64,000 nt of DNA from an uncultured Clostridia bacterium (GTDB lineage: Bacteria; Bacillota; Clostridia; Oscillospirales; Butyricicoccaceae), in the NCBI GenBank assembly GCA_910586575.1, contig CAJUJQ010000001.1:11947-75946 (forward strand), written 5' to 3'. Position numbers and translations under genes: made by a program. Position 1 is the first letter of the stretch. Each line of letters opens with the position of its first letter. Below, piece by piece: positions 5,626 through 13,568 of this stretch. The notes beneath the pieces are model-generated. The model had not been told where the DNA came from, searched no databases, and was given only the letters and a program-made list of their open reading frames with translations.

Positions 5626-6243
5626 TCAAACCAACCCGCCGAGCAGCAGCTCTGCCGCCGTCATGGTGCCGCTCCGCAGCTTGCGGAGCATCGCCTCGTG
5701 CTGCGCCAGCTCCATATATTCCTCGTGCTGGCGGTGGCGGCGCTCCCAGAATGTTTCGTCCGTGTTGCTGCCATTCATCTTGTCAAGCAGCTCCATCAGC
5801 TCCTTTTCCTTGTCCAGGTCAATCGACTGGACGCGGAAGGACTCACGGTCCGCGCCGATGCAATAGGTGTTGTAGCTGCCCAGGTTGCCGAAAACAGGCG
5901 TGCTCCAAATATTTTCCAGCGTGGCGAGCACCCACTCCTCATACTCCGGATCGTCCTTCATCGCCTGAAAGCCCGCGTCGGAAATCTTAACCGACAACGA
6001 TTCGAGCGCACGGGTCGGGTCAACCGGGATGGCCGAAATCCGGCCGGAAATGTATTGCTTGTATTGGCCCAGGTTCATCTGGTCCCGCTGGAAGCCGGTA
6101 TCGGCATGTTCCTTTTTCGCGGTTTCCCGCAGCGCAATGTCAAGGAAGCTCATCCCGCCCGCTGCTGCCGCGCCCGTGGTCTTTTCAGCGACCAGGTTGG
6201 TCAGCGCTGCCGGCATCGCGCCGACGTGGATTGTCCTGCTCAT
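5626..6243 (-). CDS. Hypothetical protein (205 aa), downstream of and probably co-transcribed with the CZB-type MCP
   Basis: Long ORF with genome-typical GC3. Lies 68 nt after the MCP stop and is followed by a strong terminator. I recognise no family. Confidence 0.6.
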   Translation of the reverse strand: MSRTIHVGAMPAALTNLVAEKTTGAAAAGGMSFLDIALRETAKKEHADTGFQRDQMNLGQYKQYISGRISAIPVDPTRALESLSVKISDAGFQAMKDDPEYEEWVLATLENIWSTPVFGNLGSYNTYCIGADRESFRVQSIDLDKEKELMELLDKMNGSNTDETFWERRHRQHEEYMELAQHEAMLRKLRSGTMTAAELLLGGLV

Positions 6244-6311
6244 GGTTGTTCCCTCCTATCATAAATTGTTCTTTATATGCACAGTATTTTCCTGTTTTTG
6301 AGGCCCGTGGC

Positions 6312-7997
6312 TCAGCTGTTTTTCAGGCTGAAGCGCCGGACCTGCTCCTGCAACAGGCGCACCTGCTCGAAAAGCTCCGAGCTGACTGCCGCCGACTCCT
6401 CCGAGCTGGCGGAATTGCTCTGCACAACCGCGGAAATCTGGCTGATACCCTCGGTCACCTGCGCGATCGAAGTCGCCTCGTTCTGCACCGCCGACGCAAT
6501 GCCGCCAATCTCGTCGCTTGACTGCACCACCAGATCCAGCGCCTTGCGCAGCGTATCCGATACCTCGTCAACAATCCGGCGGCCCTTGTCCGCAGCCTCC
6601 ACCGAGTTTTCAATCAGCTCGCGTGTCGCCTTCGCCGCGCGGTCGGATTCACCCGCCAGGTTGCGTACCTCGCTGGATACCACCGCGAAGCCCTTGCCCG
6701 CAGTCCCCGCGCGCGCCGCCTCGACTGCCGCGTTCAGCGCCAGGATATTGGTCTGGAACGCAATATCCTCAATCGTCTTGATAATTTCGCCAATCTTCTG
6801 GGAAGCCTCCGCGATGTCCGCCATCGCCGAAACCATCTGCTCCATCTGCTCGCTGCTGAGCGTGACCTGTTCACGCGCCTTACGCGCGCTGCCCTGCGCG
6901 GTCTCCGCTGCTTCTACGTTGTGTTTCGCGTTGCGGGACAGTTCGTCCAGCGTTGCGAACATCTCCTCTACCGCGCTTGCCTGCTCGGTCGCACCCTGCG
7001 CCAGCGCCTGCGAACCGCTCGAAAGCTGCTCCGCGTTGCCGGACACCCGGTTCTCGGCCTGCGAAATCAAGCCCAGCGCCTGTGACATCTTGTCGGTAAA
7101 GCTCTCAATCGACTGCTCAATCGACCGGAAATCGCCGATGAACGGCTCGGTTGCCTGTACATTGAAGCTGCCGTCGGACAGCTGCCCCATCATCCGGTTA
7201 ATGTCGCTGACATAGCTCTCGATCAGCTTCAGCGAACCCTCCAGCGTATTGACGAGTTCGCCCAGCTCATCCTTGGAACGGTGCCCCAGGTCAATTTGCA
7301 GGTGCCCGTCCAGCAGCGGGCGGCTCTGCTCGGTTATCCGCAGGATGGGTGCGACAACACGCTTCACCACATACTGCACCAGGCTGATCAGCGAAACCAG
7401 CATCAGCACACAGGAGATAATCGCCAGCAGCTGCATGAGCTGAATCGCCGAACGCATCCCCTCCGCGCTCTCCGCGCTCATCGCCTCGCTGCGGGCCACA
7501 ATGCCGTCCAAGTGCCCGACCAACGTGCTCAGATTCACCAATATGGTCTCCTGATAGTACCGCCGCGCCGCCACGGTGCCGCTCTCCATCATGTCCAGCG
7601 CTTCGGTCGCCGACGCGTGCAGCTCCTTGTGCAGCGGCTCAATCTTGTCACGCAGCGCCAGGATTTCCTCGTCGTCCGTGCCCAAATCCCCGTAAATCCA
7701 CTTGCCCAGCGCACAGGCGGTCGGGTCCTTGCTGCCGGTGAACTCCGCGCCCGCGTACAGCGCGTTCGACAGGTTCGCCGACCATTTATAATGCGCAACC
7801 TCGGCGCTCAGCGCGTTGCTGTGCACCATGCTTGCCTCGGCGCTGCCCTCCTGGGTTGAGCGGATCCGTGCAATGCTGCCCATCATCACGGCAGCCAGCA
7901 GGATAATCGCGGCCACAGCCGCGCTTCCCCGGATCCATACGTTCCTTTTGATGCTTCCTCTACGTCCTAACATAAGTGGCACATCCTCCCAATTCAA
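6312..7997 (-). CDS. Methyl-accepting chemotaxis protein with extracytoplasmic CZB-like (zinc-binding 4-helix) sensor, HAMP and MCP signalling domain
   Basis: 561 aa. TM1 about residues 24-44 and TM2 about 184-210. Residues H69..H127 match Hxx[W]x22Cx[L]Gx[W]x22HxxxH. Conserved signalling hairpin EQASAVEE...[20 protein letters not shown]. Confidence 0.9.
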
Positions 7998-8073
7998 TCT
8001 CTCCCAGGGGCAAGATGCGTCCGCCCATGGTCTATGTTAAATTTCTTACAGCGTTCCGCGTCTCCCGCTACCC

Positions 8074-9288
8074 TCATCCCAGGTTATTGACCAGCTCGTC
8101 AGCGTCCGAGAAGCAGCGCATAAACAGGTCGCTGACCTCGTCCGCAGGGATCTCCACCGGGATTTCCGGCAAAAGCAGCCGCGGGTTCGACATCTCATAA
8201 AGCATGATATATTGCAGCCACGGGGTATAACCGTTTTCGGCAGTCCCCGCAAGCGCGTCCTTCATCTCGGCGTTCAGGTCAATGCCCGCCACCAGACGTT
8301 CCATCGGGGTATCGAGAATCCGGTCCAGCATGCTGAACATGCCCAGCAGGAAGCCATCGGCGCTGTCCAGCCCGGCACGCTCCATCATCCGCTCAATGAA
8401 CAGACCGCGCAGGCAGCCCTGCCGGATGGCCTCATCCGACGCTGTCGCGTTGTTTTCACGCGCCAGCAGCAGCAGCGCGTAGCGCCGCAGCTCGCCCTGC
8501 CCCATCTGAATGAGCATCCGGCGGATGTCCGGCAGGACGTTGCCGCCGAAATTGTCCTGGAAGCCCGCGCGCTTGAGCAGCAGGTAGGTCATCGCGGCGT
8601 CGCTCTGGATCATCTGCGCGCAGACGTCGAAATCCACGCTCGGCCGCAGCAGCTCGTTGAGCAGCCGCCCATAGGGCGAATCCACCAGCTTCGGGATCTG
8701 CTTGTTCATCAGCCGGGGCTTTTCAAAATAATACCCCTGAAACAGCAGGAACCCTAAATCCCGCGCCGCGTCAAAATCGGCCTGTGTCTCGATTTTTTCC
8801 GCCAGCATGGTCACCGGCACCTTTTTCAGTTTGCGCGCAAAACGGCGCTGGTCGTCCCGGCCAAAGCGTCGGAAATCCACGCGAACAATGTTGATTAGCG
8901 GCAGGATGGAATTATACTGCCCATGGCCGTCATAATCCTCCAGCACCAGGGTATAGCCCAGCTTGCGCAGCTCCTCCAGCTTGCGCGTGACCGCCGCGTC
9001 AATCGTGATATCCGCCATTACTTCAACCGCGACCTCCTTGGGGTCGGCCAGCCGCACGAAATCGTTCAAAATGAGGTTTTTCGTGAAATGGATATAGGCC
9101 ATGTGACCGTTGGTCAGCTTGGAAAAGCCAAACAGCGACATGGCCTCGGATAAAACATTGCGGGTCGCGGCATCCCCATCGGTGATAATGGACACATTGC
9201 CGCTGCGTGCATCACGATAAAGGAGCTCATAGCTCCGGATCTCTTTATTCAGGTTGTAGATCGGCTGTCGTGCAATATAGGCGTACAC
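8074..9288 (-). CDS. EAL + HDOD domain protein (c-di-GMP phosphodiesterase-like)
   Basis: QPIYNLNKEIRSYELLYR...LEDYDG...AEKIET...FQGYYF (EAL fold), followed by an HDOD-like C-terminal half. The start is set at GTG 9288, behind GGAGGAGG; the ORF track extends to 9336, so the start is uncertain. Confidence 0.75.
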   Translation of the reverse strand: MYAYIARQPIYNLNKEIRSYELLYRDARSGNVSIITDGDAATRNVLSEAMSLFGFSKLTNGHMAYIHFTKNLILNDFVRLADPKEVAVEVMADITIDAAVTRKLEELRKLGYTLVLEDYDGHGQYNSILPLINIVRVDFRRFGRDDQRRFARKLKKVPVTMLAEKIETQADFDAARDLGFLLFQGYYFEKPRLMNKQIPKLVDSPYGRLLNELLRPSVDFDVCAQMIQSDAAMTYLLLKRAGFQDNFGGNVLPDIRRMLIQMGQGELRRYALLLLARENNATASDEAIRQGCLRGLFIERMMERAGLDSADGFLLGMFSMLDRILDTPMERLVAGIDLNAEMKDALAGTAENGYTPWLQYIMLYEMSNPRLLLPEIPVEIPADEVSDLFMRCFSDADELVNNLG

Positions 9289-9348
9289 GCGGATGGCCTC
9301 CTCCGTTTTCGTTTTTGGGCGGGCGGGGCACCTCACGCCCCGCCTGGC

Positions 9349-11769
9349 TTAGTCTGCATTTTTATATTGTACGGTCACATCGTCATTTTCGGCAAGCACC
9401 TGGGTAAATTCGCAGGATTCACCATTATGCAGCAGCTCCACCGGGCGCTCCAAACGGCTGAAATCCAGCCCCGAGAATTGCAGGATATCCATAAAATAAT
9501 ACGGATCGCCGTTCGCCTTTGGGGGAAGCGCAAGGGGTTTGCCGTTCATGCGGATATTCAGCCCGGCGCGCGGCAATCCCAGCCCCGGAAGGTCGGGCAG
9601 CACCACCCTGGGGACGCCCCGCCGTTTGGGGGCCTCCGGCCTGGGGGCTGCCATCACCTGAGCGGGCGCTGGCGGCACTTCTGTCACAGGTTCCGTTTTT
9701 TGAGCAGGTTCCTGCGGTAACGGCGCTGCGGTCACAGGCTCTTCCTCCTGGACTGGCACTGACGGTTCCGGCGCTTCCATCACAGGCCCCGCCGCCTGTT
9801 CCGGCACGGATGCCTCTGCCCGCACAGACTTCACCCCTGGGGTATGCCGCACACGCGGTTTACGTTCCGGGGCAGTCCCCTCAAAGCGGAGCTGGCCTTC
9901 GAGCGGCGCGGAATCCTCGGCTTCCGGACGGGTCTCCTTCCTGGGGACGCGCTGCATTTTAACCGGGACATTCACCGCTTTTTCGCCGTCCGCCGTGCGC
10001 ACCACCGCCCGTGCCCGCAAAGGCTCTGCAAAGGACGCCGCCGGTTTTTGAAGCTCCGGCGCTCTTTCCGGCTCCGGCAGCGGCGCGGGCAAATCCGCAC
10101 CCGTCACGACGCTATCCCCGGTACGCAGCCGGTAGGACAGCGCCTGCGGCACGTCATTGACGGTCACGCCGCCTGTGAACCCATCGCCCAAGGCTTTGCC
10201 CAGCGTCTGCGAAGCGTTTTCCCCCGCTTTCGCCGGGGTAAAGTGCAGGCTGTCGCCCGCGTGCACCACCGCCGAAAGCTCGGCAGCTGCTCCGTTGAGC
10301 CGGATGACCGGCGGCGTACCGTGCCGCCCGCGCAGGAATACCCGCTCCCCGTTCAGGGTGTAGCTCAGGTTCGCGCCAGTGCGGCCCATCATGTCGCCGT
10401 AATTACAGCCGTTCATCAGCAAAATATCACGCACATTGAGCGTACCGCTGCGGAACAGCTTTGCGGGCAGGCCGTTCAGCGTGACCACGTAGCTGTCGTG
10501 AATCATGCCGAGCGCCGCCGAAACCGCAATGCCCAGCGGCGTGGAATACTCGGGGTCGTTCAGTCCAATTTTATCAGAATACGCGTTTTTTTCAAAATGG
10601 TTGCCCGCTATGGCGACGCGCGCGTCATCCATCCCGAGCGCCTGCGCGACGGCCTGCCGCAGCCCATAGAGCTTGCTGCCGCCGCCCGCAAGGAACACCG
10701 CCGAGGGCGCCGCGCCGTTCAGCTCAAGCACCCGTTCGGCAATCTCGCCCGCGAGCAGCTGCACGGCAGGCTCAATCATCTCGGTCAGCATTTCGGAGGT
10801 GCACTCGTGCGGCAAGCCAAGGATATCGGTGTACCGGATTGGCTCCGCGCTGCCGATTGCCATCTTGAGCGCCTCGCCGGTGCGGAAATCAATCAGCAGC
10901 TTTTTCATCAGCAGCTCGGTGACCTCGTCGCCCGCGACGGTCGCCATGGTGTACCCGGCGACGCTGCCGTCGCGGCAGACCGCGATATCCGATGTACCCG
11001 CGCCGATATCGGCAAGCACCAGGTTCAGCAGCCGGATGTCGGACGGGATAGCGGCATTTAAGGAAGCGATCGGCTCGAGTGTCAGGCTGGAAACCTCCAG
11101 CCCGGTCTGCGCGACGACCGTATATAAACTGTCCACCACCTCACGCGGGAGGAAGGTGGCAACCACGTCGGCCTCGAGCACGCGACCCCGGTGCCCGTGC
11201 AGCGTGGACATGGGGTAGCCGTCCAGCCGGTACTGCGACGCGGTATAGCCGACCATATAAAAGGTACCGTCCCCGCCGTCGGCGGCCACACTTTCCGCCG
11301 CCGAAACCGCGCCGGCTTCCAGCTGGTTGATGATTTCGTCATCCGCCTGCCGTGGCTCGGCGAATTCCAGCGTAAAGCTGGCCTTTGCCGACTTCAGGGC
11401 GCGCCCCGCAGCGGCAACGCAAACCTTTTTCAGCCGGATATGCTGGCGCGATTCCAGCCGGTCGATCACCTTGCGCGCAATCGCCGCGACCTGCGCAATA
11501 TCTTCAATCTGCCCATCCAGCATGGCGCGGCGCCCATGCTCTTCTTTTTCGATATCGAGGACCCGGAAACGTCCGCCCTCCTCGCGCCCAAGCACGCCGA
11601 CGATACTGCGCGTACCGATATCAAGGGCGAAAATCGTCCCTTCTTGCTGCACGGCAGCAGGCACAGGCTCCGCCTCCTTCCTGATTTCCGGCAGACGGAC
11701 GAGCGCCCCGGCGCGCATCGCTGCCGCTTGGGCAGCAGTGCGTCTGCCGGGGGTTGCCCGCCGCCGCAT
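9349..11769 (-). CDS. FtsA/PilM-like actin-fold (ASKHA) ATPase with Pro-rich linker and C-terminal beta-grasp-like modules
   Basis: 806 aa. Phosphate/adenosine motifs FALDIGTRSIVGV, LADIGAGTSDIAV and FLAGGGSKLYGL. The C-terminal 380 aa hold repeated xxLNG...DGD-type short modules and a long P/E/A-rich stretch. The ATG overlaps the stop of the upstream MCP (TAATG). Confidence 0.65.
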   Translation of the reverse strand: MRRRATPGRRTAAQAAAMRAGALVRLPEIRKEAEPVPAAVQQEGTIFALDIGTRSIVGVLGREEGGRFRVLDIEKEEHGRRAMLDGQIEDIAQVAAIARKVIDRLESRQHIRLKKVCVAAAGRALKSAKASFTLEFAEPRQADDEIINQLEAGAVSAAESVAADGGDGTFYMVGYTASQYRLDGYPMSTLHGHRGRVLEADVVATFLPREVVDSLYTVVAQTGLEVSSLTLEPIASLNAAIPSDIRLLNLVLADIGAGTSDIAVCRDGSVAGYTMATVAGDEVTELLMKKLLIDFRTGEALKMAIGSAEPIRYTDILGLPHECTSEMLTEMIEPAVQLLAGEIAERVLELNGAAPSAVFLAGGGSKLYGLRQAVAQALGMDDARVAIAGNHFEKNAYSDKIGLNDPEYSTPLGIAVSAALGMIHDSYVVTLNGLPAKLFRSGTLNVRDILLMNGCNYGDMMGRTGANLSYTLNGERVFLRGRHGTPPVIRLNGAAAELSAVVHAGDSLHFTPAKAGENASQTLGKALGDGFTGGVTVNDVPQALSYRLRTGDSVVTGADLPAPLPEPERAPELQKPAASFAEPLRARAVVRTADGEKAVNVPVKMQRVPRKETRPEAEDSAPLEGQLRFEGTAPERKPRVRHTPGVKSVRAEASVPEQAAGPVMEAPEPSVPVQEEEPVTAAPLPQEPAQKTEPVTEVPPAPAQVMAAPRPEAPKRRGVPRVVLPDLPGLGLPRAGLNIRMNGKPLALPPKANGDPYYFMDILQFSGLDFSRLERPVELLHNGESCEFTQVLAENDDVTVQYKNAD

Positions 11770-13568
11770 TAGTATTTATCGTAGGCGCCGTAGCTCACGT
11801 CCGCGCCGACAGGAGCTTCGTCATAGGACGGCTCGTGCGCAGCCGGACGGGGGATGAAACCGCCGCCCTGCTTGAGGGTGAAACGGCTCATCAGCTGGTC
11901 AAGCAGCTGCGCCTGGCCGGACAGCTCTTCGCTGGCTGCGGCGGTCTCCTCGCTGGTCGCGGAGTTGGTCTGCACGACTGCGGAAATCTGCTCGATGCCT
12001 TCGTTCACCTGGGCAATGGATTCTGCCTGATGGCCGCTCGCAACCGCGATTTCGCCCATCATAGAAACAGCCGCCTCGGTCAGCTCGCGGGTCTGTTCGA
12101 GCGCTTCCGCAACCTCGGAAACATAACCGCTGCCCTTTTCCACCGCGTGGATCGCGTTCTCAATGCGCGCCTGGGTCGCCTTGGAAGCCTCGTCAGACTT
12201 GCTGGCAAGGTTGCGCACCTCGTCCGCGACAACGGCAAATCCCTTGCCTGCGGAGCCTGCGCGCGCGGCCTCGACGGCGGCGTTCAGCGCAAGAATATTG
12301 GTCTGGAACGCAATGTCACTGATGGTGCCGATAATCGCGCGGACATCCTCCGCAGCGGTTTTAATTTCATCCATCGCGGAAATCATGTTGCGCATCCGCT
12401 CGTCGCAAACGCCAACCTGCGTACCAGCCTGATCGGCTTTCTCGCGGGAGGCCTGCGCCTTCTGGGAGTTCTCGTTGGCGCTCTGGGTAATCTCGGTGAT
12501 AGTCGCGGACAGCTCCTCAACGGCGCTTGCCTGCTCGGTTGCGCCCTGTGCCAGCGCCTGTGCGCTGTTGGACACCTGGTCGGAGTTCGCGGAAACCTGA
12601 TCGGAGGACTGCTGGATCTGTGCCAGCGCGTCGCTCAGGCTGTCGTTAATGCCACGGATGGAGTGCAGCACCGGCTCGAGGTCGCCAACGTAGGAATCGA
12701 CCGCGCGGCTGCGGATATCAAAGTTGCCCTTTGCCATTTCGCCAAGCAGGTAGCCGATATCGGAAATGACGCGGTTCAGGTCGTCAACCACATCGTGGGA
12801 AGCGGCGACCATGTCGCCGATTTCGTCTTCGCTGTCGATCTCAGGCAGCGGGGAGTGCAGGTCGCCCTTCGCCAGTGCCTGGAGACGCTTGACACAGTCG
12901 CCCAAAGGCAGCGCGATGCCACGGGAAATGGAGGCGGAAACGAACACGCCCAGCCCCATCGAAATCACAAGCAGCGCCATGACAATCGCGAGACAGAACA
13001 TGGTCTGCCGCGCCTGGTCCTCTTTCAGCTGGTCTCCCTGGCTGACCTTAAGTTCCAGCAGGGATTTCATATTATCATAGATCGTATTAAAGTCCTTATC
13101 AAGGCTGTTGAACATTTCGTCCTGAATCTGACGGCGCGCGCTTTCGCTCATATTGTTAGTGACGCGGCGCATCAAATCCTCAGCGGTCACAATATAATCA
13201 GCCCATGCGGCTTTTGCGGCGCTAAAGGAAGCCCTTGCAACGTCGGTTTCCAAAGAACCCTCGACCTCATCCAGATACAGGTTCACCTGGCTTACCAGTT
13301 CTTCCATTTCGCTTTGGGATTTCTGACGGATATTGGCATCCAGGCAGCTGATGGCGTCATGGACCTTACCATCGAGCTTCGCGAACTCACCCATGACCAT
13401 ACCGGTATCGCCCTGGGCGAAGCCGAAGCGGACCATACCGACGTCATACGCTTTCTGAATATTGCGCATCATGAGAGAGCTGACCACACCGGTGCAGCTA
13501 GCAAGCACGGTAACACCGCAGACGGCCAGCGTAATCCGCTGTTTAACCTTCATTTTTTTGAGTTTCAT
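11769..13568 (-). CDS. Methyl-accepting chemotaxis protein (4HB-type sensor, HAMP, MCP signalling domain)
   Basis: 599 aa with two TMs. [13 protein letters not shown]...[20 protein letters not shown]. Confidence 0.9.

Follow-up and report, generated by a model that had tools for sequence, protein, structure and literature searches.

Chemoreceptor zinc-binding (CZB) domains are known biochemically from TlpD, DgcZ and McpA, cytoplasmic proteins in which the domain reads the zinc and redox state of the cell itself; an outward-facing version would sample the environment directly. In the cytoplasmic CZBs the cysteine of the zinc site is the residue that reacts with hypochlorous acid (HOCl) and tunes zinc affinity (PMC8262984; PMC6715182), and a 2026 preprint has assigned aerotaxis and redox taxis to the CZB chemoreceptor McpA. 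Perkins et al. surveyed 10,140 CZB sequences (mBio 2021, PMC8262984) and described, with a sequence logo, 384 'periplasmic' CZBs (3.9%) of membrane-bound chemoreceptors, in which the Cys motif has Ala or little conservation at position 2, where soluble chemoreceptors are enriched in Arg. Here we describe a methyl-accepting chemotaxis protein (MCP) encoded on the minus strand (6312..7997, stop codon included) of a 64,000-nucleotide stretch of DNA, called the window throughout (positions 11,947 to 75,946 of contig CAJUJQ010000001.1, assembly GCA_910586575.1, from an uncultured Clostridia bacterium). With a probability of roughly 0.9 we read it as a class-I transmembrane chemoreceptor (N-terminus inside, first transmembrane segment TM1, sensor, second transmembrane segment TM2, HAMP domain and methyl-accepting domain) from a gut Clostridia bacterium close to Butyricicoccus and Oscillospiraceae, with a sensor that is an extracytoplasmic CZB four-helix-type bundle of ~140 residues holding a complete site of three histidines and one cysteine. 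The predicted ligands are H69, C95, H123 and H127, numbered here, as in an earlier note made on this DNA from its letters alone, from the TTG at 7997.

Our search of the literature on periplasmic, extracellular, extracytoplasmic or transmembrane CZBs returned only the 2021 survey (PMC8262984), while a TlpD structure preprint, the McpA aerotaxis preprint and two gut-microbiota sensor-domain surveys contain nothing on outward-facing CZBs. Within this literature, the periplasmic subgroup is known bioinformatically and uncharacterised experimentally. The earlier note had presented the receptor as a distinct input mode, which overstates its novelty, outward-facing CZBs having already been counted and given a logo by Perkins et al. 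(PMC8262984). The window gene itself adds no principle beyond that survey, and its value lies in the family as an experimental target: outward-facing CZBs are abundant in motile butyrate-producing gut Clostridia (Oscillospiraceae, Butyricicoccus, Lachnospiraceae), the chemosensory inputs of which are largely unknown, and the sensor domain is small, confidently predicted and easy to express, making an external CZB input directly testable.

Identity and membrane topology of the sensor

The CZB signature, written as Hxx[WFYL]x21-28Cx[LFMVI]Gx[WFLVI]x18-27HxxxH, matches residues 69-127 of the MCP (HYKW...CALGKW...HKELH), which map to 7793..7617 of the minus strand, with the predicted zinc ligands encoded at 7791-7793 (H69), 7713-7715 (C95), 7629-7631 (H123) and 7617-7619 (H127). 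The earlier note had fitted H69, W72, C95, W100, H123 and H127 to this signature, and both the regular expression and the mapping onto the DNA agree with it exactly. The match is unique across the six frames of the window and arose in none of 200,000 composition-preserving shuffles of the protein. A search with the Pfam CZB profile (PF13682), which that note had named as a check, aligns the profile over its full length (1-64 of 64) with residues 69-134 (7596..7793, minus strand) at E = 5.5e-11, the score of 43.1 bits exceeding the curated gathering cut-off of 29.4; NCBIfam models match only the generic signalling half of the MCP. All four ligands are invariant in two homologue alignments (n=57 and n=24), and C95 is one of just two cysteines in the protein, the other being C196 within TM2.

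Searched as a single sequence with phmmer against the PDB, the sensor returned a chance match only (4ax2, E = 0.62). When 24 homologous sensor domains were aligned (alignment A2) and searched as a profile, the top match in the same database was the CZB of E. coli DgcZ, 3T9O (chain 3t9o_A, E = 0.0016), in an alignment spanning profile positions 10-118 and chain positions 5-118. The invariant His, Cys, His and His of the sensor family fall at chain indices 23, 53, 80 and 84, which are H22, C52, H79 and H83 of DgcZ when one extra N-terminal construct residue is allowed for. As this alignment reaches beyond the 59-residue motif, the whole sensor of ~140 residues is, by sequence, homologous to a solved CZB. 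Judged by its sequence, the MCP sensor is a genuine CZB domain with a complete predicted zinc site.

The domain is bracketed by two strongly hydrophobic segments. TM1 (residues about 24-44; 7866..7928, minus strand) reaches a Kyte-Doolittle 19-mer mean of 2.31 and follows a basic N-terminus, and TM2 (residues about 184-210; 7368..7448, minus strand) reaches 2.59 and is followed by KRVVAPILR. Between them lies the predicted extracytoplasmic ligand-binding domain (residues 45-183; 7449..7865, minus strand), made up of three long helices and a short helix bearing the cysteine. On the far side of TM2 come a HAMP domain (PF00672; residues 210-253; 7239..7370, minus strand; E = 7e-07, 29.9 bits against a cut-off of 25) and the MCP signalling, or methyl-accepting, domain (PF00015; residues 370-524; 6426..6890, minus strand; E = 2.3e-40, 138.7 bits), with its hairpin-tip motif at about 6743. 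In the established architecture of chemoreceptors HAMP and signalling domains must be cytoplasmic to couple to CheW and CheA. The distribution of charge points the same way: the 15 residues ahead of TM1 contain five lysines or arginines and no acidic residue and the 15 past TM2 contain three, giving eight basic residues on the cytoplasmic flanks against three on the outer flanks (one and two, accompanied by two and three acidic residues).

An AlphaFold2 model of the TM1-sensor-TM2-HAMP portion (M9-270, built on 57 homologues) has a mean predicted local distance difference test score (pLDDT) of 90.1. In this model TM1 runs unbroken into sensor helix 1, and a single continuous helix comprises sensor helix 4, TM2 and HAMP AS1. 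Foldseek matches the model best to NarQ sensor-TM-HAMP crystal structures (5jgp and others; E = 1e-3 to 1e-2, probability 1.00) and then to the E. coli chemoreceptor core unit and Tar, a result that supports the overall receptor layout only. Because two strong transmembrane helices, the HAMP and signalling domains after TM2, the bias of eight against three in basic residues and the NarQ-like model all agree, we regard it as close to certain that the CZB sensor faces outward, as the earlier note had predicted for the segment between TM1 and TM2.

The reading frame of the MCP, taken from the list of open reading frames and its translation, gives 561 amino acids from its first start codon, the TTG at 7997, and 553 from an in-frame ATG at 7973. 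Since homologues are called at 546-558 amino acids and the ATG is preceded by a GGGAGG box at a distance of 11 nt, the true start is probably ATG 7973, that is, M9. The residue numbers of the earlier note are thus correct as counted from the TTG and likely 8 too high; with M9 as the start 8 is to be subtracted from each, and nothing else changes. Two plus-strand open reading frames overlapping the gene (6277..7215 and 7281..7859) were rejected as shadow frames: they have no family matches, and the MCP gene is 57-60% GC in a window of 55-61% GC.

Distribution and conservation of outward-facing CZBs

A word-indexed search with MCP residues 1-215 against proteins clustered at 90% identity returned 1,103 matches at E <= 1e-3. 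Every one of the best 120 of these carries both PF13682 and PF00015, and the full CZB motif is present in 119 of the 120, with exactly one transmembrane segment on either side in 116 of the 119. The few named proteins among these best 120 are annotated as 'CZB domain-containing protein' or 'HAMP domain-containing protein' and come from Butyricicoccus, Dysosmobacter, Ruminococcus, Lachnospiraceae and Eubacteriales. Among the 120, the residue at position 2 of the Cys motif is V, I, T or A; the window protein reads C-A-L-G-K-W. More distant relatives were collected with an exhaustive phmmer search, using the sensor alone, of 1.84 billion representatives at 50% identity, which yielded 900 matches at E <= 1e-3 and 152 at E <= 1e-10. 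Of 99 full-length representatives (motif plus at least two transmembrane segments), 98 place every CZB motif between TM1 and the next transmembrane segment, and the sole exception is a split TM1 call.

Conservation was read from 207 outward-facing CZB modules, which come from 150 representatives at 50% identity. In this set no module departs from the motif residues H, C, G, H and H (100% each), and across distant modules (30-60% identity) only H, W, D, C, G, W, H, H and A are near-universal. The aspartate in this series, D91 in the window protein (7725-7727), stands four residues before the cysteine (D-P-T-x-C), is 92% conserved and is the only near-universal position other than the ligands and the core-motif G and W; in DgcZ this residue is Ser. 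This Asp may be a subgroup-specific second-shell or extra ligand residue. Alignments of close homologues show further invariant residues outside the ligands, namely L76-S-N-A-L-Y81, F86-T-G-S89, Y102, Q149 and L159-V160.

In a scan of one genome per prokaryotic species, 443 loci encode a relative of the MCP. The best 80 of these 443 belong nearly all to gut Clostridia, many from mouse-gut catalogues; the closest is a Butyricicoccus (71% identity), and the others include Oscillibacter, Flavonifractor, Lawsonibacter, Acutalibacter caecimuris, Neglectibacter, Enterocloster bolteae, Schaedlerella arabinosiphila, Butyrivibrio, Coprococcus and Eisenbergiella. Among the hosts of a homologue, S. arabinosiphila DSM 106076 and A. 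caecimuris are culturable. The homologues come from obligately anaerobic gut Clostridia, in keeping with the earlier note's description of the protein as an anaerobe's chemoreceptor.

Many of the phmmer relatives carry complete CZB modules in tandem between TM1 and TM2 (for example P0141, P0150, P0174, P0144 and P0162), with a period of ~91 amino acids. By strict motif counts the 98 full-length representatives divide into 52 with a single module, 34 with two, 11 with three and one with five, and Pfam confirms stretches of five, four, three and two CZBs in tandem relatives. Such arrays are not mentioned in the 2021 survey (PMC8262984).

Candidate signals and genomic setting

The likeliest function of the window MCP, to which we give somewhat less than even odds, is that of a zinc-thiolate switch responding to external oxidants or redox state. 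In such a switch Zn2+ would clamp helix 1 (H69), the short Cys helix (C95) and helix 3 (H123 and H127) together, as in DgcZ and TlpD. The C95 thiolate would remain zinc-bound in the reduced gut lumen, and oxidants at the cell surface (reactive oxygen species (ROS) derived from O2, HOCl or H2O2) would oxidise it, loosening or releasing the zinc. The sensor bundle would then repack, whether C95 is oxidised or zinc is lost or gained. Since helix 4 continues into TM2, this rearrangement would be relayed by TM2 and HAMP to the kinase-control tip, where it would change the activity of CheA, and an obligate anaerobe could in this way orient its swimming with respect to oxidising zones. What the analysis establishes is the identity of the domain, the conservation of its ligands, its topology and its place in a large family; that the site binds zinc, that C95 reacts with oxidants, and what kind and direction of taxis would follow are what we infer. 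We favour a redox input because in characterised CZBs zinc is held very tightly and the cysteine forms a lid over the site that reacts with oxidants (PMC8262984; PMC6715182), because aerotaxis and redox taxis are now ascribed to a CZB chemoreceptor (McpA, in the 2026 preprint), and because the hosts are obligate anaerobes, for which detection of oxidants at the surface is plausibly adaptive.

A wider and more doubtful proposal, offered tentatively, is that outward-facing CZBs as a group would serve as surface detectors of oxidants or oxygen in flagellated obligate anaerobes of the gut, their medium-exposed zinc-thiolate switch driving negative aerotaxis or avoidance of ROS through the TM2-HAMP relay, with the single-module form of the Clostridia as the minimal unit of a modular family that extends to 2 to 5 modules. 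If true, a redox-sensing input outside the cytoplasm would be known for a chemoreceptor for the first time, and gut inflammation would be linked directly to the swimming of butyrate-producing commensals.

Several observations weigh against reading the sensor as a CZB redox switch. The outside of the cell has no cytosolic zinc buffer, and the logic of TlpD, DgcZ and McpA, the reading of the cellular labile zinc pool, may not transfer to it. The Cys motif carries Ala, Val, Ile or Thr at position 2, where soluble HOCl-sensing chemoreceptors are enriched in Arg (PMC8262984), and the local chemistry may therefore differ from that of the soluble sensors. Our literature search found no experiment on any outward-facing CZB. 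Finally, when the sensor was modelled alone with AlphaFold2 (residues 45-183; pLDDT 93.7, predicted template modelling score 0.85; helices at 2-38, 52-57, 66-92 and 97-138), Foldseek matched it to generic periplasmic four-helix-bundle sensors only (MCP2201, Tar and Adeh_2942, at E >= 0.07), and DgcZ was absent from the top 50. The modelled fold does not single out CZB, and its comparison neither adds to nor detracts from the assignment made from sequence.

The main rival, which we think unlikely, is a direct external metal sensor, in which the His3Cys site would cycle between apo and zinc-bound forms (or forms bound to another soft metal) with the free Zn2+ outside, with no oxidation of the cysteine, and would guide taxis toward or away from zinc as set, for instance, by host nutritional immunity or by sulfide-controlled zinc solubility. 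The same complete predicted zinc site serves this explanation equally, in a compartment without zinc buffering, and because the outer compartment is unbuffered external zinc sensing is more plausible here than for cytoplasmic CZBs. Zinc occupancy does regulate DgcZ (quoted in PMC8262984), and the Asp four residues before the cysteine, found in 92% of the outward-facing modules and absent in DgcZ, could tune affinity or exchange. Characterised CZBs, however, bind zinc with sub-femtomolar affinity, and a chelator could not strip the zinc from TlpD (PMC8262984; PMC6715182); binding as tight as this fits reversible sensing poorly, unless the affinity of the outward-facing subgroup is far weaker.

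Less probable again is a purely structural zinc, the His3Cys site stapling the bundle while the signal, a small molecule or a ligand-loaded solute-binding protein, is recognised elsewhere on the sensor dimer, as in Tar-type receptors. In Foldseek nothing lies closer to the sensor model than Tar, MCP2201 and PcaY-type sensors, the close homologues share the many invariant non-ligand residues listed above, and a screen of gut-Clostridia sensors found no ligands for four-helix-bundle (4HB) domains and suggested signalling through binding proteins (10.1101/2025.02.11.637667). Against this, the metal ligands and their immediate neighbours alone are near-universal across distant modules, which points to the metal site as the functional core, and no solute-binding-protein gene is conserved beside the receptor at the three loci compared (L001, L002 and L003). 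Very improbable is a wrong topology (TM1 not inserted, say, or TM2 re-entrant or amphipathic) that would leave an ordinary cytoplasmic CZB: the outward orientation is deduced from hydropathy, charge bias and architecture, but both segments are strongly hydrophobic (19-mer means of 2.3 and 2.6), the domains directly after TM2 necessarily meet CheA and CheW in the cytoplasm, the charge bias fits an inside N-terminus, the model matches the NarQ sensor-TM-HAMP fragment, and the bracket of two transmembrane segments recurs in 116/119 close and 98/99 distant homologues.

The MCP gene lies inside a flagellar and chemotaxis cluster that includes fliY, fliM, motB, flgC, a second MCP of 4HB type, an EAL protein and an FtsA-like ATPase. 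The gene string at 5626-13568 of the window consists of the 4HB-type MCP, a ~800-amino-acid FtsA/PilM-like ATPase, the EAL protein, the CZB-MCP and a 205-amino-acid protein without a family match, followed by flgB, flgC, fliE, motB, fliM, fliY and cheY. This string is kept at two further loci, a 97%-identical metagenomic contig and a genome with a 59%-identical CZB-MCP (L001 and L003), and is not kept at the locus of a Lachnospiraceae homologue (P0041, locus L002). We considered and rejected the run of 4HB-MCP, FtsA-like, EAL, CZB-MCP and 205-amino-acid genes as a CZB-specific module; as it is kept in the Butyricicoccus/Oscillospiraceae-like lineage and not around the Lachnospiraceae homologue, it represents lineage synteny inside a flagellar locus. 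The upstream 420-amino-acid protein (8074-9336, minus strand) has a weak partial match to Pfam EAL (35.4 bits, profile 113-236 of 236), consistent with a putative degenerate EAL domain.

At the Lachnospiraceae locus (L002) the CZB-MCP stands beside a GlpA-like FAD dehydrogenase set, an aldo-keto reductase with Fe-S domains, a thioredoxin and a thioredoxin-reductase-like gene. These redox neighbours, a single case, are suggestive of a redox role.

Comparison with described CZB proteins and chemoreceptor sensors

The window MCP is a straightforward member of the periplasmic CZB subgroup catalogued in 2021, and nothing essential differs. Like the members of that subgroup (PMC8262984), its CZB is N-terminal, lies between membrane spans and has Ala at position 2 of the Cys motif. 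The survey gives a count and a logo for the subgroup, without biochemistry, and the family is much larger than reported there: it numbers more than 1,100 proteins when clustered at 90% identity and 900 representatives at 50%, and 443 loci in species genomes encode a relative.

The best solved relative by sequence is the CZB of DgcZ (YdeH; 3T9O / 4H54), of which H22, C52, H79 and H83 align with H69, C95, H123 and H127 of the window MCP at equal loop lengths. DgcZ itself is cytoplasmic, has its CZB fused N-terminally to a GGDEF cyclase and lacks membrane spans, and its output is cyclic di-GMP, whereas that of the window MCP would be control of CheA. The two also differ at the position four residues before the cysteine, which is Ser in DgcZ and the 92%-conserved Asp in the outward-facing modules.

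In its layout of TM1, helical bundle, TM2 and HAMP the window MCP resembles sensors of the Tar and NarQ type, which Foldseek ranks best (NarQ when the long model is the query, and MCP2201, Tar and Adeh_2942 when it is the sensor by itself). It has no sequence relationship to them, however, and Pfam 4HB_MCP_1 does not match it; sensors of that type recognise organic or anionic molecules at the dimer interface and lack a His3Cys metal site. With H. pylori TlpD and S. Typhimurium McpA, on the other hand, it has in common its Pfam family, its zinc ligands and an output to chemotaxis, and in TlpD and McpA the cysteine is the residue that reacts with oxidants. In these soluble receptors the CZB is C-terminal, following the methyl-accepting domain, and cytoplasmic, with neither transmembrane segments nor HAMP, whereas the CZB of the window MCP is N-terminal between two transmembrane helices and would signal through TM2 and HAMP as a classical sensor does.

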